Below are positions 1-10,022 of a DNA stretch of 14,834 nt, piece by piece. The position numbers and the translations under genes are program-made. Under the pieces are notes generated by a model. That model was not told the origin of the DNA, searched no databases, and saw only the letters and a program-made list of their open reading frames with translations. The DNA is taken from contig JBGAQA010000072.1 in NCBI GenBank assembly GCA_044220955.1, forward strand, positions 21,311-36,144, given 5' to 3'. Each line of letters opens with the position of its first letter. Positions within the stretch are counted from its first letter, which is position 1. Source of the DNA: Sandaracinaceae bacterium (GTDB lineage Bacteria > Myxococcota_A > Polyangia > Polyangiales > Sandaracinaceae).

Positions 1-2
1 AG

Positions 3-185
3 CCGCCGGAGATCCGTCCGCTCCGGCTCCGCGTGAGCGTCGCGGCGCTGAAGCGCGCGAGCTTCGCGATCGTGCCGGGCATCCGCCAAGTGAAGAAGAG
101 TCGCATCCTCGGTCCGGCCGGACGCCTGTCTGGCGCCGACCTCACGCGTCTGGACGCCGCGATCCGTGACTACCTCGGCGACTGA
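3..185 (+). CDS. PemK/MazF-family toxin, C-terminal part (5' end lies outside the window)
   Basis: Not in the ORF track. Manual translation of frame 3 gives PPEIRPLRLRVSVAALKRASFAIVPGIRQVKKSRILGPAGRLSGADLTRLDAAIRDYLGD*, matching the MazF C-terminal pattern (L..S.a....ir.v.k.Rl....G.l.......d.ai...Lg). Stop TGA at 183-185. Confidence 0.7.
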   Translation, partial: PPEIRPLRLRVSVAALKRASFAIVPGIRQVKKSRILGPAGRLSGADLTRLDAAIRDYLGD

Positions 186-270
186 CAGGCGAGCTGGACG
201 AACGACCTCCCGCGCGGAGATCCAGTGCGTCGCGGGAGGCGTCGCGCCCGCCCGAGGCGGAGACCACCCG

Positions 271-313
271 TTGCGAGCTCATGGTCACGAATGTTAGATT
301 TGTGACCATGAGC
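271..313 (+). promoter_or_regulatory. Promoter and palindromic operator of the phd-vapC operon
   Basis: -35-like TTGCGA (271-276) and extended -10 TGnTAGATT (292-300), with ATG at 308. Perfect 12-bp inverted repeat GCTCATGGTCAC (277-288) / GTGACCATGAGC (302-313) overlaps the -10 and start codon, as is typical of TA autoregulation. Confidence 0.7.
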
Positions 314-541
314 GTGCGGAAGCGTGAGCGGACCCTGCCTGCCGGGCGGTTCAAGGCCCAGTGCCTCGCCGTGCTCGACGAGGTCGAAGCGCGGGGAGGC
401 TCGGTCGTCATCACCAAGCGCGGCCGTCCGGTCGCGCGCGTCGTTCCGCTCCGCGTGGCCGGCGGCTCGCTCCGCGGATCGCTCGTGCACGAGGAGGATC
501 TCCTCGCGCCCGTCGGTGTCGCGTGGGAAGCGACTTCGTGA
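308..541 (+). CDS. Phd/YefM-family antitoxin
   Basis: MSVRKRERTLPAGRFKAQCLAVLDEVEARGGSVVITKRGRPVARVVP has the Phd/YefM signature (FKA..l.llDeV......vITKrG.PVA.lvP). Start moved from 281 to 308 because 281-307 is the operator and -10. Its stop overlaps the toxin start (GTGA). Confidence 0.92.
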   Translation: MSVRKRERTLPAGRFKAQCLAVLDEVEARGGSVVITKRGRPVARVVPLRVAGGSLRGSLVHEEDLLAPVGVAWEATS

Positions 542-927
542 TCGTCCTCGACACGCACGCCTGGGTCTGGTGGCAGACCAAGCCGGAGAAGCTCGGTCGT
601 GCCGCAGCGCGGACGATCACGAAGGCGGCGCGGATCGGGGTGCCGGCGATCTGCGCCTGGGAGGTCGCGATGAAGGCCGAGGCGGGGAAGCTCCGCTTCG
701 ATCGCCCCTACGACGTCTGGATCGACGAGGCGCTGGCCGACGACCCGCGCGTCGAGCTCCTGCACCTGTCGCCGCGGATCTCCGTCGCGGCCACGCGCCT
801 GTCCTGGACGCACGGAGATCCCGCCGATCGCTTCATCGTCGCGACCGCCCGCGTGCACGACGCGCCCCTGGTCTCCGCGGACGAAACGATTCGCGACGCA
901 CGTCTGGTCAAGTGCATCTGGGATTGA
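538..927 (+). CDS. vapC: VapC-family PIN-domain toxin
   Basis: From GTG 538: MIVLDTHAWVWW...AICAWEVAMK...HGDPADRFIVATA......LVSADE. The conserved acidic PIN residues are present; 129 aa; translationally coupled to the antitoxin. Confidence 0.93.
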   Translation: MIVLDTHAWVWWQTKPEKLGRAAARTITKAARIGVPAICAWEVAMKAEAGKLRFDRPYDVWIDEALADDPRVELLHLSPRISVAATRLSWTHGDPADRFIVATARVHDAPLVSADETIRDARLVKCIWD

Positions 928-996
928 TCAGCACCGCGAGAGGCCCCGGGGCTTCGAGGCCATTCGGGATGACGCACTGAATCAGGGTCCAGCGCG

Positions 997-1039
997 GGGC
1001 GTAGGAACGACGGGCGTAGGAAGGAGGGCGTAGGAAGGA
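997..1039 (+). repeat. Three tandem copies of the 14-bp terminal oriIS motif
   Basis: GGGCGTAGGAACGA (997-1010), C, GGGCGTAGGAAGGA (1012-1025), GGGCGTAGGAAGGA (1026-1039). The transposase-linked end carries only one copy (5746-5759). Confidence 0.9.
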
Positions 1040-1129
1040 TGAAGCACCTGTTTCCCCGCGCGAGTTGTCGTAACCCATGTTCTGCGAAGTCGTCCCGCGC
1101 GTCCAGGCCCTGCCCCAGGTGCCTGCGGA
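1026..1129 (-). repeat. Orphan 104-bp copy of the IS91/ISCR-like oriIS end (direct repeat of 5746-5849)
   Basis: Identical to 5746-5849 except C1061 versus T5781; offset 4720 bp. Contains the inverted pair GCACCTG (1044-1050) / CAGGTGC (1116-1122). Confidence 0.95.
1063..1090 (-). other. dif-like XerC/XerD recombination site, copy 1
   Basis: Minus strand reads ACTTCGCAGAA-CATGGG-TTACGACAACT (11-6-11). The arms match B. subtilis dif (ACTTCCTAGAA / TTATGTAAACT) at 9/11 and 8/11, and E. coli dif (GGTGCGCATAA / TTATGTTAAAT) at 7/11 each. Reference sites are from memory. Confidence 0.72.
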
Positions 1130-1863
1130 GCCGCCGAAGGCCGCGATCACGGCGTCGGTGAAGGTCCACGCGCCCGTCGAGGTCTCGCTCGCGCTCGACG
1201 AGCCAAAGCCCGCGCGCGGGGGCCCGCCACTGCGCGCCATCACCGCGTCTGCGATCGCGCCCGAGTAGCAGGTGTCGGCGAAGAGCAGCGCGCGACGCAT
1301 GCGGCCGCCCTCGACCGCGCGAACGATCTCGTCGTAGGCCAAGCACGACGTGCTGCTGTCGTCGCCGGCGTCGAAGGGCACCGCGTACGAGTCCCCCGCG
1401 TCGGTGCGATCGCCGTGGCCGGTCCAGTAGAAGAGAAAGGTGTCGTCGGGATGGGCGGAGTCGATCGCCGCGTGCAGGCCCGCGCGCGTGGCGGCCAGCG
1501 TCGCCTCGCGATCGTGGAGGTACGTGATGCGCTCGCGCGGGACGCCGCGACGGGCGAGCGTGTCCACGAGCGCCTGGTCGCGCCGCTCGGCGCGCGGAAA
1601 GCTCGCGTAGACGTCGCTGCGATGCCAGCGCAGCAGGCCGACGGCGAAGACCACCGTGCGCGCCGGATCCCAGACGATCGGGCTACCCTCGACGGGCGCC
1701 GTGGTCGTCGGCGGCGCCGCGGGCGGCGTCACCGCGGGCGCGACGAGCGAGCGATCCGTGCCGCCGAAGCAGCAGCCGCCGAGCGGGAGCAGGGCCGCGG
1801 TCGCCGCGGCGTCGCGCAAGAACCGGCGTCGGCCGATCGGACTCACGCCCTCATCATACGCCG

Positions 1864-1885
1864 CGCGGCAGCGACGTTCCCTCGC
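1864..1885 (+). repeat. 22-bp perfect direct repeat, copy 1
   Basis: CGCGGCAGCGACGTTCCCTCGC, identical to 5486-5507. Both copies lie between annotated CDSs. Confidence 0.92.
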
Positions 1886-1896
1886 CCATCAGACTC

Positions 1897-2244
1897 TCAG
1901 TCCAGGTCCATCGCCACGCGTAGGCCGAGCGCGATCGCCGCGAGTAGCTCGCGGGGCAAGGTGCCGATCTGCTCTCGGAGCTTGGCCCGATCGAGCGTCG
2001 TCACTTGGTGGCAGAGGGCAACCGATTCTCGGTTCAGACCGGCCGCGCCGCGCGGCACGCGGACGGCGGTCGGACCTCGTGCGGCCTGCGTCACGGAGGT
2101 CGAGAGCGGCACGACCACGATCGACTGCCAGTTCGCCGACGCGTTGAATCCATCGTGCGAGACGACGACGACCGGTCGTCGCCCTGATTGCTCGGACCCG
2201 GACCTGGGCTGGAGATCGGCCCACAGGACGTCACCGCGCTTCAC
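1897..2244 (-). CDS. mazF: PemK/MazF-family mRNA interferase toxin
   Basis: MKRGDVLWADLQPRSGSEQSGRRPVVVVS...IVVVPLST...GLNRESVALCHQVTTLDRAKLREQIGTL shows the canonical MazF motifs; 115 aa. Confidence 0.95.
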   Translation of the reverse strand: MKRGDVLWADLQPRSGSEQSGRRPVVVVSHDGFNASANWQSIVVVPLSTSVTQAARGPTAVRVPRGAAGLNRESVALCHQVTTLDRAKLREQIGTLPRELLAAIALGLRVAMDLD

Positions 2245-2528
2245 TTGGCGCGCCGGCTCCGACTGCGCGGTGCGCGAAGGTGCTCGACGCCGGCGCGCTC
2301 GAGATCCGGATCGAGATCCACACCCGTGCCGCCCCAGCGCTCAGCGTAAGCGCGGAGCTCGGCGTGCTGCGCAGAGCGTCGGCGGGCGTCGAGCCAGCCC
2401 TCGACGGCCTCCCGCACGATCGCAGTGGTCGGCCGTCCGCTGCGGCTCGACTCGGCACGGAGCTCGCGATGCAGTGCCTCCGAGAGGGGCAGGTGGAAGT
2501 TGCGGACCGAACTCGTGGCGCGCGCCAT
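2241..2528 (-). CDS. Ribbon-helix-helix (CopG-like) antitoxin of the MazF toxin
   Basis: RNFHLPLSEALHRELRAESSRSGRPTTAIVREAVEGWL fits the beta-alpha-alpha RHH pattern. It has an acidic C-terminal segment (DLDPDLE) and a 4-bp overlap with the mazF start. Confidence 0.8.
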   Translation of the reverse strand: MARATSSVRNFHLPLSEALHRELRAESSRSGRPTTAIVREAVEGWLDARRRSAQHAELRAYAERWGGTGVDLDPDLERAGVEHLRAPRSRSRRAK

Positions 2529-2562
2529 GCCATGATTTTATGCCATGCGATGCTGGCGTCAA
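2524..2562 (-). promoter_or_regulatory. Promoter and operator of the RHH-mazF operon
   Basis: Minus strand TTGACG (2562-2557), 16 nt, TAAAAT (2540-2535), 6 nt, ATG (2528). Three CATGGC direct repeats flank the -10 and overlap the start codon. Confidence 0.7.
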
Positions 2563-2618
2563 TCGAGTCGTCGCCGCCCCTGACGCCTCCTGAGAACGAG
2601 AGCGCTATCCTCATCGCG

Positions 2619-3011
2619 ATGTACCGCAACGTCGATCTCGAGCTCCGAAGCCGCGAGCGGCTCGACTCGCTCGTCACCGCGCTCGCCGACCGGGTGCTCG
2701 TCCTGCACCACTCGCGAGAGCGTCGACGGTCGTTCCTTTGCCTGACCGTGCACGGCAGCGGGCTCGACCGGTTGCCGGGACGCACGCTGCGGCGCTGGTT
2801 CGAGCTGCTGCGTGCGCTTCGGGGCGAGCCGCGTCGGCTGTTCCGCGCGTCGCGCGTCCTAGCCTCGATCGGCTACGAGGCTGACGAGGCGCACTCCACC
2901 GCTGTCGTGGTGGAGCCGGCCGACGTCGCGGCGCTCGCTCGGCTCGGTGTGGGGATCGAGGTCGTCGTGTACGCGCGCGACGACCGTCGAGACGCTCAGG
3001 CCGGCGGGTAG
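2619..3011 (+). CDS. Hypothetical protein (130 aa)
   Basis: MYRNVDLELRSRERLDSLVTAL...SIGYEAD...DVAALARLGVGIEVVVY has globular, protein-like composition. TATCCT lies 7 nt before ATG 2619. The upstream part of the 2280 ORF is antisense shadow of the antitoxin. Confidence 0.7.
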   Translation: MYRNVDLELRSRERLDSLVTALADRVLVLHHSRERRRSFLCLTVHGSGLDRLPGRTLRRWFELLRALRGEPRRLFRASRVLASIGYEADEAHSTAVVVEPADVAALARLGVGIEVVVYARDDRRDAQAGG

Positions 3012-3023
3012 AGCAGCCCGGAG

Positions 3024-3048
3024 ATGGGGGCGAACGAGGTCGCCCCAT
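3024..3048. terminator. GC-rich hairpin between convergent genes (possible terminator)
   Basis: ATGGGGGCGA-ACGAGG-TCGCCCCAT stem-loop with no clear U-tract. A 12-bp palindrome GCTCTGCAGAGC follows at 3068-3079. Confidence 0.35.
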
Positions 3049-3099
3049 GCTTCCTAGAGACGACTACGCTCTGCAGAGCACGACGATCGCAGTCCACCG

Positions 3100-5232
3100 T
3101 CAGGGGATCGTCCAGCAGCCGAGGTCGGCGATGCCGCCGGGCGCAGCGTCGGCCGTGGGGTCGGCGAGGTAGCGAACGTCGTAGGTGCCAGGGAGCACGA
3201 TCGCGCTCGTCGTGTTCAGCATCGCCGAGGCCGACGTCAGTGAGAGGACCGTGGGCGACACGCGCGTCGGGTCCTCGCCCCGACGTACGAGCACGATCGA
3301 CGCGGCGCGGCTCGCGGGGCTGGGCCCGAGGCCGACGACGCCGACGGCGAGGCTGACGCTGCGCGCGGGCACGTCGATCGCGAGCGTTCCGTCCGCGCTC
3401 ACGTCGAGCCCGTGCGTGATTGTCCCGCTCGTCACCGGCCACGGCGGGCTGGCCGCGGCGAGGTAGCGAACGTCGTACGCACCCGTGACGAGGTGCAGCT
3501 CGCGCGTCGGCGCGAGCACGTCGGCGGCGTAGTAGACGCTCGTGTAGTAGTCGCTCGCGCCGGGTGCTCCGCCCGCGCTCGGCGCGAGGTCGACGGTCGG
3601 CGAGCGGAAGTCGCGCGGGTCGACGGGGCGCGGGAGCAACGGTGGCGCGGCGCCCGCGAGCGTGATCGGCGTGGTGACGTCGACCGTCGTGACCGCGAAC
3701 GTGACGCTGCGATCCACCGTCACGATCAGATCCGGCGCGATCGGGTTGCTGAAGAAGCCGCCCGACGAGGGCCATCCCGTCGGGCAGCCCGAGCCGCTCG
3801 CGAAGGCGAGCGCGTAATGACTGGGCAGGAGCTCCGCGCTGCCCGACGGCGGCACGCCGCGATCGCCGAGCACGATGCAGCCTCCGGTCGTTGCGGTGGC
3901 GCCGTTCACGCTGACCGCGTAGTCGAGGGTGACCGTGGCGAGGTCGTAGCTCAGCAGGGTGTCGGTCGTGATGGTGCGCGCCGCCTCGAGCGATGCTCCG
4001 AACGCAGGCATCGCGCCGAACGCCGCCGGGGACCAGTTCTCGTACGACACGTCGAACGTCCCCGCGACGATCGCCACGCTCGCCGTCGAGGGCGTGAAGT
4101 GCATGCCGTCGGACGCCGCGTCGTAGAGCGGGAGCCGCACCTGATCGACCCCGCGCGTCAGCACGATCGTGGGGACGTAGTGACCAGGCGCCGTGAGATC
4201 CACGTCGGCGAGCGGCGCACCACGGAGTGTCGCCGTCGCGCTCACGTGCACGCGCGGGATGTCGATGCTCGGAGCCACGTCGTGCGTGACGTCGATCGTC
4301 CCGAGGGGTGCCCCGTAGCTCACTGGCCACGGCGTCGACGTCGACGCGATCCCTTCGCGGTCGTACGTCGCGACGTACGTGTCCGCCAGAACGCGTATCG
4401 CGAAGTCGCCCGTGCAGCGGCTCGTGCTCGCCGTGACGGTCTCGCAGAGCATGACGCTCGCGAGGCCTCCGTGCGCGCCGGTGAGCTCGATGAACGGCGT
4501 GGCGCGGTCGCTCGTGCTCGGCACGTCGGCGCCCGCGAGCGTGACCGTCAGATCCAGCATCGCGGTGTGGACGTCGATCGCGAGCGAGGTGCCCTCGGCC
4601 GGCACGACGACGTGTCCGACGATGGCGTCGCGCGCCATCGGGAATCCCGACCCCTGGGACTGGAGCAGCACGTCGTACGTGCCCGGCACGACCTGGAGCT
4701 GCATCGCGGGGATGGGCGTCGCTTCGGTCGCGCCGGCGGGCAGCGAGTACAGCGGGAGGTACACGCTCGGGGTCGTGGTGTCGGGCGCGAGCAGCGGCGA
4801 GCGCAGCTCGAGCGTCGGCAGAAAGACCGCTCCTGCGGGGGCGAGCGACGGGAGCGCGCCGCCGTCCATGGTCACGTCGATCGCGAGCGGCGCACGTCGG
4901 ACATCGAGCGCCACGCGCGTGCCCGTGCGACAGCCGCTCGTGCAGTGGCCGCTGCCGAGGTCGCAGACCATGCCCACCGCGCAGTCGCCGTCGCGCACGC
5001 AGCGCGTGCCGCAGACGTGAGGCATCGCCTCGCCGCAGGGCATCGACGGATCGCAGATACCGCACGCGAGCGTGGTCCCGCAGCCGTCGTCGACGTCGCC
5101 GCACTCGAAGGCGAGCGACACGCAGGTGCGCGGGCGGCACGCGTCCGGCGTGGACGCGAACGGAACGCGCGGCGGATCGCACGCGACGAGCGCGAGCGCG
5201 AGCACTGCCGACCACGCGAGGCATGTGCGCAC
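3100..5232 (-). CDS. Large Cys-rich lipoprotein with about six repeated beta-rich modules (710 aa)
   Basis: From GTG 5232: signal peptide and lipobox (LALALVAC), a myxobacterial-type Cys-rich block (CRPRTC...ECGDVDDGCGTTLACGIC), then recurring motifs VVPGTYDV, VLADTYVA, IVAGTFDV, LLPSHYAL, LVTGAYDV, VLPGTYDV. Confidence 0.8.
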   Translation of the reverse strand: MRTCLAWSAVLALALVACDPPRVPFASTPDACRPRTCVSLAFECGDVDDGCGTTLACGICDPSMPCGEAMPHVCGTRCVRDGDCAVGMVCDLGSGHCTSGCRTGTRVALDVRRAPLAIDVTMDGGALPSLAPAGAVFLPTLELRSPLLAPDTTTPSVYLPLYSLPAGATEATPIPAMQLQVVPGTYDVLLQSQGSGFPMARDAIVGHVVVPAEGTSLAIDVHTAMLDLTVTLAGADVPSTSDRATPFIELTGAHGGLASVMLCETVTASTSRCTGDFAIRVLADTYVATYDREGIASTSTPWPVSYGAPLGTIDVTHDVAPSIDIPRVHVSATATLRGAPLADVDLTAPGHYVPTIVLTRGVDQVRLPLYDAASDGMHFTPSTASVAIVAGTFDVSYENWSPAAFGAMPAFGASLEAARTITTDTLLSYDLATVTLDYAVSVNGATATTGGCIVLGDRGVPPSGSAELLPSHYALAFASGSGCPTGWPSSGGFFSNPIAPDLIVTVDRSVTFAVTTVDVTTPITLAGAAPPLLPRPVDPRDFRSPTVDLAPSAGGAPGASDYYTSVYYAADVLAPTRELHLVTGAYDVRYLAAASPPWPVTSGTITHGLDVSADGTLAIDVPARSVSLAVGVVGLGPSPASRAASIVLVRRGEDPTRVSPTVLSLTSASAMLNTTSAIVLPGTYDVRYLADPTADAAPGGIADLGCWTIP

Positions 5233-5281
5233 CCCTTCAGTATGGGCGCGGCGACCTCGCGTGTCGCGGAGCGGCGGCGCG

Positions 5282-5486
5282 TCAGACGGTGTCGATCCGG
5301 CGCAGCGAGCGTCAGCGTCGAGGGCCGGCGCCGCGCGGGGAACACGATGGCGCGCGCCACACGTCGCAGACACGCACGCGCGCGCGCCTGCGGCTCCTCG
5401 GTGACCGACACCGATCGCACCTGCCCCGACGCCGCGATCACGAGCGAGACTGCGGCGCCCTCGTGCGCGCCGGCACAGCGCCAGAC
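5282..5486 (-). pseudogene. 5'-truncated fragment resembling an AgmX/PglI (TonB_C-like) C-terminal domain
   Basis: VWRCAGAHEGAAVSLVIAASGQVRSVSVTEEPQARARACLRRVARAIVFPARRRPSTLTL fits the C...v.l.i..sG.V..v.v......C........FP pattern. It has no start codon and begins at the 22-bp repeat; its 3' end is uncertain. Confidence 0.55.
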
Positions 5487-5507
5487 GCGGCAGCGACGTT
5501 CCCTCGC
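5486..5507 (+). repeat. 22-bp perfect direct repeat, copy 2
   Basis: CGCGGCAGCGACGTTCCCTCGC, identical to 1864-1885. Confidence 0.92.
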
Positions 5508-5531
5508 TGGCTGTATGCTCCGCCGCCCTCG

Positions 5532-5753
5532 ATGATCGAGCTCCCCGCGCTGACGCTCGCCCTGCCGCTCGCGCTCGCTGCGTTCCTCGGGTTCTCGGTC
5601 GAGACCGTGCTCGGGTTCGGAGCGACGCTCATCACGGTGGCGATCGGCTCGTTCTTCGTCGATCTCGAGGCGCTCCTGCCCGCGATCGCGCCGCTGAACC
5701 TGATGCTCTCGCTCTATCTCGTGGCCCGCTACCACCGCGAGATCGGGGCGTAG
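5532..5753 (+). pseudogene. TauE/SafE (TSUP) family membrane protein, 3'-truncated by the IS end
   Basis: MIELPALTLALPLALAAFLGFSVETVLGFGATLITVAIGSFFVDLEALLPAIAPLNLMLSLYLVARYHREI is a TSUP N-terminus (GFG motif) of only ~71 codons, against roughly 250 aa for the family. The stop TAG (5751-5753) is supplied by the oriIS sequence. Confidence 0.8.
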
Positions 5754-5782
5754 GAAGGATGAAGCACCTGTTTCCCCGCGTG

Positions 5783-5810
5783 AGTTGTCGTAACCCATGT
5801 TCTGCGAAGT
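5783..5810 (-). other. dif-like XerC/XerD recombination site, copy 2 (37 bp inside oriIS)
   Basis: Identical 28-mer to 1063-1090, in the same orientation and with the same 6-bp spacer. Confidence 0.72.
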
Positions 5811-5977
5811 CGTCCCGCGCGTCCAGGCCCTGCCCCAGGTGCCTGCGGACGCGCGGACGAACGGCCTGTGGACGCGCGGAAGAACGCCTCGCGCGTCGCT
5901 CGCACGGTACGAAAGGACGCGGGACGCCGCGCGGACGGAGCCGTCCGTTCGCGCGGGCCGGCCGGCGTGCGCGTGCG

Positions 5978-7357
5978 TCAGGTCCAGTCGTGCTCGGCCG
6001 GGCCGGGAGGCGGACGCGCGGGGCGGATCGGCAGCGCCTCGCACCGGTAGCCGTGCGCGCGCAGCGCTCGCGCGAGGCCGCTCCGCTCGATCAGGGTCGC
6101 CACGTACCTCATGCGGCCGCCACAGTCGCGACAGGACTGCACATCCAGGCCGAAGCTCTTGCGCATGAGATCGGCCCAGGCGGTGTTGCGGCGCCGCGGT
6201 GGGCCCGGCGGGCCCGGCAGCGCCCGCGCGCGGTGCGAGGCGTGTCCCGCGAGGATGCCGTGGTACAGGAGCGTGTTCGCGCGAGGCCGCGGGACGAGGC
6301 TCGCGAGGCGCTCGAGGAACGTGTCCGGGTCGTACGACACGTGCGTCGTGCCATCGGGCCACGGATGCCGCAGCGCGAGCACGATGCGGCCGTCGGGCAT
6401 GGCGCGGAGGCGTGATGCGGAGAACGGCGGACGCAGGATGTAGCGACAGAGCTGCTCGAGACGATCCCGGCGCCGGGGAGAGACGGCCACGGTGGCGTCG
6501 AGGTCGAAGCCGCCGAGGCGCGCTTTGCGGCGCTCGCGCTCGGGGACGAGCGTCACGTGCGGGTCCTCGTCCGGACCGAGCTTGCTCGCGCCACGCGACA
6601 GGACGGAGCGCGTGAGCGTGTGCGCGAGCGGGCCCTCCTGCCCTGCAGCCTCCGATGCGCCGCCGTCGCGACGCGCCAGCAGGCGCTCGACGCGCGTGAC
6701 GATCTTCGCGAGCAGCGCCTCCATCTCGCCGGGAGCCGGGGCGGCGACGGGGACGAAGCGCGGAGCCCGGCCCGGCGCGAGCGCGAACGCCCCGTCGAGG
6801 AACACCCCGTGGAAGTGCAGGTTGAGCCGGAGGTCGCCGCCGAATCGATGGATGGCCGTGACGTTCCCGCCTTGGAGGCGCGCCCCGGCCGGGCAGCGGA
6901 CGGAGCGGCGGTACCACCGGTCGATCACGCGGACGGCGACCCTCCAGATCGCGAGCGCGAGGGAGTGATCGTACGCGGCGCGGTAGCGGAGCCCGAAGGG
7001 CAGCGTCAGCACCCACTGACGGACGCGCACCTCGGGGAACACGCGCGAGACGAGATGGCCGGCCAGATCCGTCATGCGACGGCCACCGCAGCGAGGACAG
7101 AAGCCCCTTCCTTTGCAGGAGAGCGCGACCAGGCGGTCCCGGCGGCAGTCGTCACAGCGGAAGCGCGCCGCACCGTGCGCGAGCACGCCGCAGCGGAGGA
7201 ACGCGCGCAGCTCGTTCGTCACGAACGGAGGCAGCCCGACGCCCTCCGGGTCGGCCGAGGCGCGCGCGGCGAGGAACGTCTCGAGGTGCTCGCGCAGCAC
7301 GCGGTGCAGGACGCCAGCCTGGGGATCGCGCGGGCTCGTGTCGTGGGTGGCGCGCAC
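5978..7357 (-). CDS. IS91/ISCR-family HUH rolling-circle transposase
   Basis: Zn-binding region (CG..AHG...RCDDC...SCKGRGFCPRCG), RQWVLTLP, HUH motif HRFGGDLRLNLHFH, catalytic LCRYILRPP, LVPRPR...YHGILA and C-terminal CRDCGGRM; 459 aa, uninterrupted. Confidence 0.96.
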   Translation of the reverse strand: MRATHDTSPRDPQAGVLHRVLREHLETFLAARASADPEGVGLPPFVTNELRAFLRCGVLAHGAARFRCDDCRRDRLVALSCKGRGFCPRCGGRRMTDLAGHLVSRVFPEVRVRQWVLTLPFGLRYRAAYDHSLALAIWRVAVRVIDRWYRRSVRCPAGARLQGGNVTAIHRFGGDLRLNLHFHGVFLDGAFALAPGRAPRFVPVAAPAPGEMEALLAKIVTRVERLLARRDGGASEAAGQEGPLAHTLTRSVLSRGASKLGPDEDPHVTLVPERERRKARLGGFDLDATVAVSPRRRDRLEQLCRYILRPPFSASRLRAMPDGRIVLALRHPWPDGTTHVSYDPDTFLERLASLVPRPRANTLLYHGILAGHASHRARALPGPPGPPRRRNTAWADLMRKSFGLDVQSCRDCGGRMRYVATLIERSGLARALRAHGYRCEALPIRPARPPPGPAEHDWT

Positions 7358-7368
7358 GGGCGGCGCCG

Positions 7369-7384
7369 AGCAGCGAGCGTTCCG
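7369..7384 (-). promoter_or_regulatory. Candidate sigma54 (-24/-12) promoter of the transposase
   Basis: Minus strand CGGAACG-CTCG-CTGCT has GG-N10-GC spacing and resembles TGGCACG-N4-TTGC. It lies 12 nt from the GC to the GTG start. Confidence 0.5.
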
Positions 7385-7542
7385 GAGCCGGCACCTGCGA
7401 ACCGCGGAGGATCTCGACCGCGGCTGGCGGAGGTGGCGGCGGGCCGCCGCCGGTCAGGGCCCCGGCACGCGATGACCCCTCGTCCCGGCCCTCTCGCGAG
7501 CCGGCCACCGTCAGTCCGCCGCGCCGCGCGCGTCGACGAGAC

Positions 7543-7767
7543 ATGAGCCGCCGCCGGAGTCGCTCGCACGGATCGTGGACGGGGCGCTGCTGGATCGACG
7601 ATCTCGATCCGGAGCGCGAGTGGGTGGACACGGCGCCGCGGGACGTCGAGCGTGCGGCGGCGCCCCCGGCGCCGGCGAGGAGCGGGGCTCGGCTCGCGGA
7701 GCCGGGCGAGCCTGCGCTCGGGGATGCCATCGGGTGGCTCGGGGCGGTGCAGCGGGAGAAGGCGTGA
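7543..7767 (+). CDS. Small hypothetical protein (74 aa), divergent from the transposase
   Basis: ORF fills an otherwise empty gap and has a Trp/acidic core (GRCWIDDLDPEREWVD). No family recognised. Confidence 0.35.
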   Translation: MSRRRSRSHGSWTGRCWIDDLDPEREWVDTAPRDVERAAAPPAPARSGARLAEPGEPALGDAIGWLGAVQREKA

Positions 7768-7856
7768 GCGAGGGCGACGGCGATCGAGATGGACGGCTGA
7801 GACCCGGCGCGCACGACGAGACGCCGAAGTCGCCGTAGCGCTCCGGCTCGTCCCGA

Positions 7857-7877
7857 TCTACATTTCCGTAGACGAGG
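7857..7877 (+). promoter_or_regulatory. Operator, -10 and RBS of the RHH-GNAT operon
   Basis: Inverted repeat TCTAC-N6-GTAGA (7857-7872) overlaps TACATT (7859-7864). GAGG at 7874-7877 precedes GTG 7883. Confidence 0.5.
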
Positions 7878-7882
7878 TCCTC

Positions 7883-8167
7883 GTGAGCGACACCCAGATC
7901 TCCGCGTTCATCTCCGACACGACCAAGGAGAAGGTCGAGCGTTACGTCGACGCGCATGGCGTGAAGAAGGGACACCTCGTCGAGGAGGCGCTGCTGCACC
8001 ACCTGCAGGCGCTGCGCGAGCTGCCGGCGGATCTCGTCCTGCCGCCGCGCCTGCTCGTGTCCCGCGAGTCGCTCGAGAAGGTGGCGGGTCTCGTTCGCAA
8101 GCCGCCGCGTCCCACGAAGGCGCTGCGAGATCTGATGAGTGGCCGGCGCGTCGATGGCGAGCCCTGA
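7883..8167 (+). CDS. RHH antitoxin (DUF1778/TacA-like) of a GNAT toxin
   Basis: MSDTQISAFISDTTKEKVERYVDAHGVKKGHLVEEALL (RHH) ... RLLVSRESLEKVAGLVRKPPRPTKALRDLM (DUF1778-like tail); 94 aa; overlaps the toxin start. Confidence 0.8.
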   Translation: MSDTQISAFISDTTKEKVERYVDAHGVKKGHLVEEALLHHLQALRELPADLVLPPRLLVSRESLEKVAGLVRKPPRPTKALRDLMSGRRVDGEP

Positions 8168-8690
8168 CGAGACCCGCTTCCGCGTTCGGCGGCTCGCGCC
8201 GGACGACGACCGCACCGAATTTCGCTCCGGGAACCTCGAGCTCGATCGGTTTTTCCATCGCTACGCCGGGCAGAACCAGTTTCGGCACCACATCGGCACC
8301 ACCTACGTCGCAGTGCGCGACGACGGCTTCCTCGCCGGGTACGCGACCGTGGCCGCGTCGGAGATCGCGACCGCTGCGATCCCCGGGGCGACGCGCAAGC
8401 GACTGCCGCAGTATCCGCTTCCGGTCCTGCGCCTCGCTCGGCTGGCGGTCGACGAGCGCGCTCGTGGGCTGGGCGTGGGGGCGATCCTGCTCGCCGCCGT
8501 GATCGGCCTCGCAGACACGATGGCGACCGAGCTCGGCTGCGTGGGCGTCGTGGTCGACAGCAAGCCCGAGGCGACAGCCTTCTACGCGAAGCTCGGCTTC
8601 GTGGCGCTGGAGGTGGACGCCGGTCAGCTCGGCGATCGCCCCGAGCCGCTGCCGATGTTCTTGTCGCTCGGCTCGGTCCCGAAGCGCTGA
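8154..8690 (+). CDS. GNAT acetyltransferase toxin (AtaT/TacT-like)
   Basis: DDRTEFRSGNLELDRFFHRYAGQNQ...GYATV...PQYPLPVLRLARLAVDERARGLGVGAILL...GVVVDSK...FYAKLGF are hallmark motifs of tRNA-acetylating GNAT toxins. Confidence 0.92.
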   Translation: MASPDETRFRVRRLAPDDDRTEFRSGNLELDRFFHRYAGQNQFRHHIGTTYVAVRDDGFLAGYATVAASEIATAAIPGATRKRLPQYPLPVLRLARLAVDERARGLGVGAILLAAVIGLADTMATELGCVGVVVDSKPEATAFYAKLGFVALEVDAGQLGDRPEPLPMFLSLGSVPKR

Positions 8691-8708
8691 GCGGGCGTCG
8701 CCCTCTCG

Positions 8709-10022
8709 TCAGCTCGGCAGCCGCGCGAGCCTTCGCGCCGCGATGGGCGACTCCGGCCACACGCGCAGCACGCGCTCCCACGCCGCCCTGCGGCTCTGCA
8801 CGTCGCCGCCGCTCTCGGCGAGCAGCGCGAGGTTCATCAGCGGGTTCGGGTCGCTCGGGTCGATCGACGCCGCACGCTCCAGCTCTTCCCGCGCCTCCGC
8901 CTCGCGGCCCAGGTGCATGAGCGACGCGCCCAGGCCGTTGTGCGCGGCCGCGAGATCGTCGACGCGGCGGAGCGCCGCGCGGAACGCGCGCTCGGACTGC
9001 TCGTAGTCCTCCAGCAGCACCAGCGCGTTGCCGAGCTTCAGCCACGACGCCGCGTCGGCGTCCTCGCGGTCGATCGCCTCGCGGTAGGTGTCGACCGCCT
9101 CGGTCACGAGGCCCAGGTCCCGCTGCAGATCCCCGAGCGCCAGCAGCGGCTCGGCGTCGTTCGGCGCCAGCTCCGCCGCGCGGCGGAAGTCCTGCTCGGC
9201 GCCCTCGACCTGGCCGTTCGCCGCGCGCTCGAGGCCGCGGCCGAAGATCGCGTCGGGGTCCGACGAGGCGCGCGCGACCGCCGTCTCGAACGCCGTCAGC
9301 GCCTCCGGGTGCTCGCCCCGCTCGCGGAGCAGGCGTCCGAGGTTGATCCACGGGTCGTGCCCCACGCGGTCGAGCTCCGTCGCGTGCCGCAGCTCGCGCT
9401 CGGCGCCCTCGAGGTCGCCGCACGCCGCGAGCGCCAGCCCGTACCGGTTGTGCAGCGGGCCCGATGTCGGGTAGTCGGCGACCAGCGCCTCGAGGCGCTC
9501 GCGCGCGGACTCGTGCTCGCCCCGATCGAGCGCGAGGTCGGCCGCGAGCAGCAAGGCGCGCGGGTGGCGCGGGTCGATCGCGAGCGCCGCGTCGAGCTCG
9601 GCCTGCGCGTCGTCGAGCAAGAGGCGCCCACGCGAGAGCGCCGCCGCGAAGACGTGCAGGTCCGCCGTCTCGCCCAGGAACTGCACGGCGCCGCTCAGCT
9701 CGCCCTCGGCGAGCAGCAGGTCGCCGCGCTGCAGATCCTCCAGGCCGCGCGCGTAGTGCTCGAGGCCGCGGACCTCGTCGTCGATCGCCCCGAGCGCCTC
9801 GGCGCGCTCGATCAGCGAGGTCGCCGTCGACGCGTGCACGCGGTCCAGGCCGGGCGCCTCGAGCAGCGACGCGTCCAGCAGCGCGCGCGCCTCGTCGAGC
9901 ATGTGGGCCGCCTGCGCGTCGCGCCACGTCGTGTACCCGAGCGCGGCGCCCATCGCGAGCCCGGAGGTCAGGGTGGCCAGGAGCACGACGCGGCCGCGGC
10001 GCGCGCGGTTCGGGGTGGACAT
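8709..10022 (-). CDS. Membrane-anchored tetratricopeptide repeat protein (437 aa)
   Basis: N-terminal hydrophobic segment (VVLLATLTSGLAMGAALGY) followed by multiple TPR units (WINLGRLL, LLALGDLQ, WLKLGNAL, AHNGLGASL, LMNLALLA). Start set at ATG 10022, downstream of TTGACG (10057-10052). Confidence 0.88.
   Translation of the reverse strand: MSTPNRARRGRVVLLATLTSGLAMGAALGYTTWRDAQAAHMLDEARALLDASLLEAPGLDRVHASTATSLIERAEALGAIDDEVRGLEHYARGLEDLQRGDLLLAEGELSGAVQFLGETADLHVFAAALSRGRLLLDDAQAELDAALAIDPRHPRALLLAADLALDRGEHESARERLEALVADYPTSGPLHNRYGLALAACGDLEGAERELRHATELDRVGHDPWINLGRLLRERGEHPEALTAFETAVARASSDPDAIFGRGLERAANGQVEGAEQDFRRAAELAPNDAEPLLALGDLQRDLGLVTEAVDTYREAIDREDADAASWLKLGNALVLLEDYEQSERAFRAALRRVDDLAAAHNGLGASLMHLGREAEAREELERAASIDPSDPNPLMNLALLAESGGDVQSRRAAWERVLRVWPESPIAARRLARLPS

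Follow-up and report, generated by a model that had tools for sequence, protein, structure and literature searches.

The HUH transposase encoded by elements of the ISCR1/ISCR3 type combines a zinc-binding N-terminus with one catalytic tyrosine. The origin end (oriIS) of these elements lies downstream of the transposase gene and has the terminal sequence CTTCCTAyrC, and blocks of acquired genes are bordered by their solo ends and co-oriented copies. According to PMC6218425 little is understood of the mechanism of ISCR and IS91 elements, and transposition has yet to be demonstrated for any ISCR. Here we describe an element of this type in a window of 14.8 kb, the final part of the 36-kb contig C271 (G000:C271:21311-36144) of a Sandaracinaceae metagenome-assembled genome (MAG; 7.5 Mb, 72% G+C, 88% complete), whose oriIS carries, by its sequence, a look-alike of the host's own chromosomal dif. 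By "window" we mean this whole stretch; one public sequencing run contains 93% of the sampled words and is probably the source sample.

Several described systems bear on this arrangement. The IMEX (integrative mobile elements exploiting Xer) CTX-phi, VGJ-phi, TLC-phi and the gonococcal island have no recombinase of their own and carry a dif-like site whose XerC arm is good and whose XerD arm or centre deviates. CTX-phi and TLC-phi replicate with an HUH protein, many IMEX and ColE1 use XerC-first, FtsK-independent recombination, and the attP of TLC-phi has a low-affinity XerD arm, changes in the XerD arm being such as may prevent FtsK-driven excision (PMC9226527). The plasmid sites cer and psi and the pdif sites of Acinetobacter plasmids are likewise dif-like, lie off the chromosome terminus, are used by host Xer and can bound modules. 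In pdif modules the sites stand in alternating orientation and are not known to be tied to a transposase end, unlike the four sites of contig C271, which are co-oriented and each joined to an oriIS tip. In the portions available, papers naming both ISCR and pdif present them as distinct entities that happen to share a plasmid, and a full-text search with most subscription journals outside its reach found no published description of a dif-like site inside an IS91/ISCR origin end.

The origin end and its dif-like site

The class of the element, as proposed in the preliminary description of this DNA, stands. Its transposase is encoded on the minus strand by a 459-amino-acid open reading frame (ORF; 5978-7357) with Pfam matches to Y2_Tnp (1.3e-21) and Zn_Tnp_IS91 (1.8e-17), an HFH motif that is invariant in the transposase alignment and one invariant tyrosine, Tyr306 in LCRYxxRP, common to this protein and to ISCR-type plasmid transposases. 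These plasmid homologues are 39-40% identical to it, and we take them to be of ISCR1/ISCR3 type from their sul1 and qepA contexts, the records themselves reading "transposase" or "IS91 family transposase". On this sequence evidence the element belongs to the ISCR branch of the IS91 family, Y1 (ISCR) and Y2 enzymes being distinguished by having one catalytic tyrosine or two (PMC10288648). The genome contains no other full-length copy of the transposase.

The oriIS side lies downstream of the transposase gene and is the end with the conserved terminal motif. Its tip segment (5746..5782, minus strand) is common to five copies in the genome and ends ...GGTGCTTCATCCTTCCTACGCCC on the transposase-sense strand, and the terminal CTTCCTAyrC resembles that of ISCR1/ISCR3-type plasmid ends, the element reading ...CATCCTTCCTACGCCC against ...GAACTTCCTATACGC/CCC in ISCR-type copies (...GAACTTCCTATACGC and ...GAACTTCCTATACCC in two plasmid copies). 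The boundary was set by comparing the window with intact homologues of the membrane-protein gene into which the element is inserted, one on host contig C257 and the others in three sister genomes. The intact homologues read ...GAGATCGA(T/C)CGG and diverge from the window, which reads ...GAGATCG and then the tip, so that the inserted DNA starts exactly at 5746. The flank after the tip is CGAT at this one readable insertion, and other end copies are followed by GACG, CGAG and TTCT; none of these is the GTTC/CTTG-type tetranucleotide listed for the flank of IS91 relatives (PMC13181058).

Exactly 37 nucleotides (nt) inside this tip, the distance given earlier, lies the minus-strand 28-mer ACTTCGCAGAA-CATGGG-TTACGACAACT (5783-5810), which recurs at 1063-1090 as had been claimed, both copies standing within a direct repeat. 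The XerD-type arm TTACGACAACT (5783..5793) is identical at 8/11 positions to the corresponding arm TTATGTCAAGT of the putative host dif and is kept in 5/5 end copies, the central region CATGGG (5794..5799) matches the host spacer GATGGA at 4/6, and the XerC-type arm ACTTCGCAGAA (5800..5810) is identical to the host left arm at 11/11, giving 19/22 arm positions in all. The site thus described is part of a conserved end module of about 65-70 nt that recurs in the end copies, in keeping with the earlier view that it is integral to the oriIS-side end. Read as Xer half-sites, its XerC-type half would be at full strength, its XerD-type half weakened at the innermost bases and its central region unlike that of dif.

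The host dif used for this comparison was sought by scoring all 28-mers of the genome against four Myxococcales and deltaproteobacterial dif sites (Table 1 of PMC2731167). Only one place reached at least 16/22, the intergenic ACTTCGCAGAA-GATGGA-TTATGTCAAGT at C133:11389. With at most three arm mismatches, this motif occurs in 27 of 32 host-family genomes (the 27 include one unpublished genome, G029), mostly in one copy each, and a reversed-pattern control has 0 matches across the 32. The C133 locus is single-copy in the host and syntenic with the corresponding loci of many relatives, and because it is single-copy, conserved and syntenic we take it as the best candidate for the chromosomal dif. 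GC skew along the 87-kb contig C133 was uninformative. Across the whole genome three 28-mers lie within three arm mismatches of the host dif, namely that dif and the two element copies, and a BLAST search with the 70-nt element end retrieves the dif loci of five relatives. The element site is not itself the chromosomal dif, which would be a single copy at the replication terminus; by sequence it is a real dif look-alike, far closer to the host's own dif than to any generic one.

Sites in related elements and their likeness to host dif

Relatives were collected by scanning one genome per species, which gave 509 stretches encoding a relative of the transposase, of which 80 loci were retained. 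The C-terminus of the transposase is reached in 53 of the 80, and at least 150 nt follow it in 51 of these. Because the 240-nt end of the element found only weak matches among the 80 loci at the DNA level, and the exact tip motif is present in few of them, motif and panel scoring were used instead. A loose 11-6/7-11 regular expression, applied to the transposase-sense strand from +90 to +260, matches in 15/51 loci, and its density there is 1.82/kb against 0.158/kb on both strands of the rest of these loci (Poisson P ~1e-11, the related elements not being independent). Downstream windows were also compared with 20 host dif candidates as a panel, at a threshold of at least 17/22 arm positions, five loci with less than 150 nt in the scored stretch being left out. 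This level is reached in 23/46 homologue windows and in 0/138 equal-sized control windows inside transposase genes, one control reaching 16, and every such site lies at +130 to +230 downstream. A lone 28-mer set beside the distant dif of B. subtilis would by itself be weak evidence. A chance resemblance in a GC-rich genome is nevertheless rejected, with a probability we put close to nil, in view of the empty reversed control, the empty control windows and the downstream enrichment.

The clearest parallel is an element in genome G004 whose transposase is 51% identical to that of the window. Its site, GCTTCGCAGAA-GCTAGT-TTATGTAAACT, lies on the same strand, about 160 nt after the stop codon and 46 nt before the tip, and its arms match those of the dif of its own host, ACTTCGCAGAA-GATAGA-TTATGTAAACT, at 21/22 positions. 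Judged by these sequences, it is an independent second case of dif mimicry. Among site-bearing elements the distance from the tip ranges from 30 to 46 nt, the spacers are G+C-rich and variable, and the innermost bases of the XerD-type arm are usually TTCCG, TTACG, ATACG or AAnnG, not the TTATG of dif. Three copies in G036 share their arms and the 36-40 nt between site and tip and have the spacers TTCGGT, GATAGA and TATAGA. A quick transposase tree with 50 rows places site-bearing elements on both sides of its midpoint, and the orientation of the site is clade-specific, being inverted in 7/7 site-bearing rows of one clade and same-sense in 15/15 of the other; the ISCR-type copies and one clade from the host family are without the site. 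The two ISCR1/ISCR3-type plasmid copies share the tip and score only 13 and 14 of 22, in contrast to the present clade with its host-tracking mimic at that 30-46-nt distance inside the tip. In metagenomes the exact 28-mer has 0 matches, and the 21-nt tip matches 1 contig, whose copy of the site is spaced 3 nt shorter and is therefore regarded as decayed.

Whether such sites follow the dif of their own hosts was assessed with 16 elements picked by the regular expression and having a known host candidate, against 20,000 shuffles of the hosts. Outside the family, the host dif candidate was a match to a core pattern that was free of element context and resembled those of related hosts; in three genomes one was selected among several candidates, and the L033/G032 pair and one panel member come from an unpublished genome. 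Over both arms the observed matches sum to 275, with shuffled hosts giving 241.0 +/- 7.0 (0/20,000 reach the observed value). The left arm contributes 142 against 114.2 +/- 6.1 (0/20,000), the right arm 133 against 126.9 +/- 2.2 (132/20,000), and the 13 outer positions that the regular expression leaves free give 158 against 127.4 +/- 6.1 (0/20,000). Individual left arms agree closely with the host, as in L050 (GGGTCTGATAA in the element and GGGTCTGATAA in the dif of G037, 11/11), L060 (GGGCCCCATAA and, in G039, GGGTCCCATAA, 10/11), L045 (GGGTCGCGTAA and, in G042, GGGTCGCATAA, 10/11) and L036 and L044 (ATTGCGCAGAA and, in G033 and G034 respectively, ATTTCGCAGAA, 10/11). Positions 6-7 of the left arm co-vary with the host in four Acidobacteriota genomes (element/host TG/TG, TG/TG, CC/CC and GC/GC). 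These comparisons indicate that element sites track the dif of their own hosts, a mimicry that is host-specific and conserved across phyla.

The position of the site invites a reading in which host Xer plays no part. The oriIS of IS91 and IS801 has two imperfect subterminal palindromes, and its last 82 bp suffice for transposition (PMC13181058); the motif described here could be the second of these palindromes, read by the HUH transposase, its likeness to dif being incidental or convergent. The fixed distance of the site from the tip, within the minimal conserved end module, is what such a palindrome would have, and the XerD-type arm often carries the TTCCG or TTACG that never occurs in dif. 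This reading leaves unexplained that left arms equal those of host dif (11/11 here and in L050, 10/11 in L060, L045, L036 and L044) and that the left-arm dialect switches with the host phylum, and ISCR1/ISCR3-type ends do without the motif altogether. Moreover, the arms are complementary at only 6/11 positions (a manual count) and are unpaired in DNA folds, so that a role as a hairpin is unlikely. What does fold is an imperfect 42-nt palindrome (5815..5856, minus strand) between the dif-like site and the transposase stop codon, the whole 112-nt repeat reaching -26.4 kcal/mol (z-scores of -2.8 for the minus and -3.7 for the plus strand). An inverted copy of the origin end was sought inside the element and none was found, leaving a folded site of the CTX type without basis. 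Taken together, we judge it unlikely that the motif is a transposase palindrome.

End copies, the segment between sites and recombinase genes

The origin end is repeated around the element. The direct repeat 1026-1137 / 5746-5857 is 112 nt long and 96% identical, each copy holding the 28-mer, and the first 56-218 nt of the end recur, shorter or further diverged, at C271:19664, C271:16646 and C199:75420. Contig C271 therefore carries four ends within 10.5 kb, all co-oriented and with a transposase only at the last. The copy at 1026..1137 (minus strand) is a solo oriIS end with the tip, the site copy at 1063-1090 and most of the hairpin, and is joined inside the hairpin, at about 1130-1138, to the interior of a caspase-like gene. 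Adjoining it are two extra nested partial tips (GGGCGTAGGAA...; 988..1025, minus strand). Counted from 988 to 1040, three nested copies of the tip start stand side by side, and a contig from another sample is without one 15-nt unit, so that the number of tip copies varies in nature; the nested copies may be traces of several rounds of initiation or termination at this end. When contigs of four public runs were compared with positions 1-9000, they broke at the repeats, and no well-supported joint at the dif-like sites was found.

The copies at C271:16646 and C199:75420 agree with the remaining end copies in tip, right arm and spacer and diverge from them at most 2 nt from the border between left arm and spacer, their left arms not being dif-like. 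A homology break at this border would fit the crossover of a site-specific recombination, though two copies are little to go by.

Between the two co-oriented sites of the window, the stretch 1138..5745 is a diverged copy of a locus that is intact in the host (C257:66037-67977) and in sister genome G021, to which it is 78-80% identical at the nucleotide level over the caspase-like and membrane-protein genes. It holds a 3'-truncated caspase-like gene (to 1846, minus strand; Pfam Peptidase_C14), a gene for a 757-amino-acid secreted-type protein (3100-5373, minus strand) with a signal-like N-terminus and no Pfam match, in a stop-to-stop frame of 842 codons, and the first 71-73 codons of the membrane-protein gene (5532-5745, plus strand), which the element cuts. 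At the amino-acid level the membrane-protein fragment matches the G021 protein at 92% of positions and the host C257 copy at 80%, and this closer likeness to G021 suggests that the segment was imported from a related species.

At the far side of the element, terIS is expected in the region upstream of the transposase gene (7358..7850, minus strand). Neither the terIS end nor its cleavage tetranucleotide was located, because the genome has one full copy only and the metagenomes have no close one. The remainder of the interrupted membrane-protein gene is not found beyond the element; a small ORF and a GNAT gene begin near 7868 instead. A search of 5650-6050 found no outward sigma-70-type promoter or terminator.

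The preliminary description had noted that the window has no recombinase gene, and a profile search confirmed this: XerC and XerD profiles run over the whole genome detected no Xer-type or tyrosine recombinase on contig C271. In five of five sister-genus genomes there is an XerD-type gene scoring 326-341 bits (above the curated cut-off in 4/5) together with a second Xer-type gene at 264-270 bits. Elsewhere in the host, 170 nt separate the C199 solo end from an ORF that matches Phage_integrase (2.4e-28) and breaks off ahead of its catalytic tyrosine, and in G036 (locus L151) a recombinase gene, its product 44% identical to that of C199, reads into a copy of the dif-like site.

Such neighbours raise the possibility that the site is acted on by a tyrosine recombinase of the element family itself, supplied in trans, rather than by host XerC and XerD. 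The C199 end would suit this, since beside its integrase ORF it keeps the tip, right arm and spacer of the others but has a left arm unlike dif. The G036 gene would suit it too, and in G021 and G035 a dif-like site is likewise accompanied by a recombinase gene. ISfinder includes IS91-family members that carry an additional integrase ORF. On the other side, a tblastn search with the C199 recombinase matches 3 of about 118 element loci, a count from one query of limited sensitivity, the window is without such a gene, and the sole copy in the genome is truncated. Mimicry of each host's dif, in addition, would be expected for host Xer and not for a private recombinase. We accordingly hold an element-family recombinase to be an improbable user of the site.

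Several observations adjoin these genes. At C199:75420-76543 (L088 15420-16543) a fragment of an IS91-type transposase (amino acids 6-143) lies 1.3 kb away on the tip's other side. In G021 (C145:24885-26644) a tyrosine-recombinase gene (150 bits, XerD profile) stands about 1 kb from a second dif-like site, ACTTCGCGGAA-GGGCGA-TTCTGTAAAGT. Two loci of G035 (L160 and L174; C10:1575249 and C22:5144) hold a perfect palindrome of two XerC-type arms, CTTTCGCAGAA-TGGCCA-TTCTGCGAAAG, one of them about 850 nt from a tyrosine-recombinase gene. Further secondary dif-like sites were seen at L199 and L201 (G044), L179 (G038), L181 (G039) and G028:C2:3192; the two G044 sites share flanks and are part of a repeat, and the G028 site, on a 210-kb second contig, may be a plasmid dimer-resolution site.

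The mobile region is flanked in the window by a gene for a PIN-domain (VapC-type) protein (361-927, plus strand), likely part of a toxin-antitoxin module, and, on the other side (7868-8690, plus strand), by a small ORF without a Pfam match overlapped by a GNAT acetyltransferase gene, likely a toxin-antitoxin pair; both assignments are our guesses. At the extreme end of the contig (14697-14818) are three tandem 41-nt units, each with the palindrome CCCTCTCCCACTTCGTGGGAGGG.

Possible use of host Xer by the element

It had been proposed that the element integrates at chromosomal dif. This was not borne out, as a homologue of the transposase lies within about 1.5 kb of dif at 0/27 family loci and at 0/17 further host candidate loci (one of which duplicates a family locus), transposase matches occur near dif-like sites only where these are secondary and element-borne (L116, L175 and L198), and the element itself sits in an ordinary membrane-protein gene. 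With no element near any of these dif loci, residence at the chromosomal dif between dif and a hybrid site, which is the defining habit of IMEX, is not supported. The present element differs from IMEX in this respect, entering an ordinary gene through its HUH end, and also in being a transposon, not a phage or island.

The same survey bears on the idea that the dif-like arm is a fossil, a hybrid left by past Xer integration into, or excision from, a chromosomal dif. That the left arm alone is a perfect copy of dif, with a spacer and right arm of the element's own type, is what gives the idea its appeal. An integration hybrid, though, would leave the element its own arm and not the chromosomal one, the flanks of the site have no similarity to the dif locus, many divergent elements have the feature at this same place, and no element adjoins a dif locus. 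We have rejected the fossil hybrid as highly improbable.

We consider it reasonably probable that this is an ISCR-type insertion sequence with a mimic of host dif in its oriIS, and that host XerC and XerD bind the element-borne sites and recombine them with one another. From the sequence comparisons we infer the binding by Xer, a XerC-first pathway and the biological role that would follow. The strong XerC arm, the degenerate XerD arm and the different centre parallel the attP sites of IMEX and ColE1-type sites (PMC9226527), and XerC would be the strong partner here, as it is where phages and plasmids use Xer. Sibling elements, which the preliminary description had also raised, or solo ends may recombine with one another, which would fit the homology break at the border of left arm and spacer, and chromosomal dif would be the less likely partner. 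One outcome would be the resolution of tandem or run-through rolling-circle products. Another would be that double-stranded circles, or segments bounded by sites, are excised or re-inserted where resident copies and solo ends lie. The IS91 family is known for one-ended transposition, and double-stranded circles of IS91 form that are not substrates of the transposase (PMC13181058). Should the site resolve run-through products, the element would resemble Tn3 with res/TnpR and Tn4430 with IRS/TnpI, copy-and-paste transposons that have a recombination site near one end, a comparison we draw from general knowledge; those transposons encode their own recombinase, whereas this element would use that of its host.

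A number of findings weigh against the use of host Xer. Within the host family only 3/17 evaluated elements (this one and those of G002 and G004) score at least 17, and the nearest transposase relatives of this element in the quick tree are without the site. The systematic deviation of the XerD arm, together with the fixed distance to the tip, could reflect constraints set by the transposase and not by Xer. The association of the right arm with the host is weak, some elements fit their host poorly (L027 13/22, L038 13/22, L006 14/22), and the host dif candidates outside the family are identified by pattern and context. Because elements and hosts share ancestry, the permutation overstates independence, and the effective independent comparisons are few, there being about three dif dialects. 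Two solo ends break about 112 and 218 nt from the tip and not at the site, and of Xer the host MAG has no more than a C-terminal fragment, where contig C54 ends.

A bolder version of the proposal, which we put forward tentatively and regard as rather doubtful, is that a large, multi-phylum clade of ISCR-like rolling-circle transposons has made the host-tracking dif mimic an obligatory part of the origin end. Host XerCD would then be the second enzyme of these elements, integrating double-stranded circles, including those with captured chromosomal DNA between two ends, into the many solo ends of genomes, and the result would be a recombinase-free, cassette-like shuffling.

ISCR and IS91 elements are major movers of accessory and resistance genes. 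If host Xer does act on the site, a recombination step supplied by the host would be added to rolling-circle transposition, and the hijacking of Xer, described for phages, plasmids and islands, would extend to insertion sequences. It would also provide a testable account of the abundant solo origin ends and of the co-oriented arrays that border acquired genes. Since the mimic tracks the dif of the host, it could serve as a marker of the adaptation of an element to its host and of its host range.

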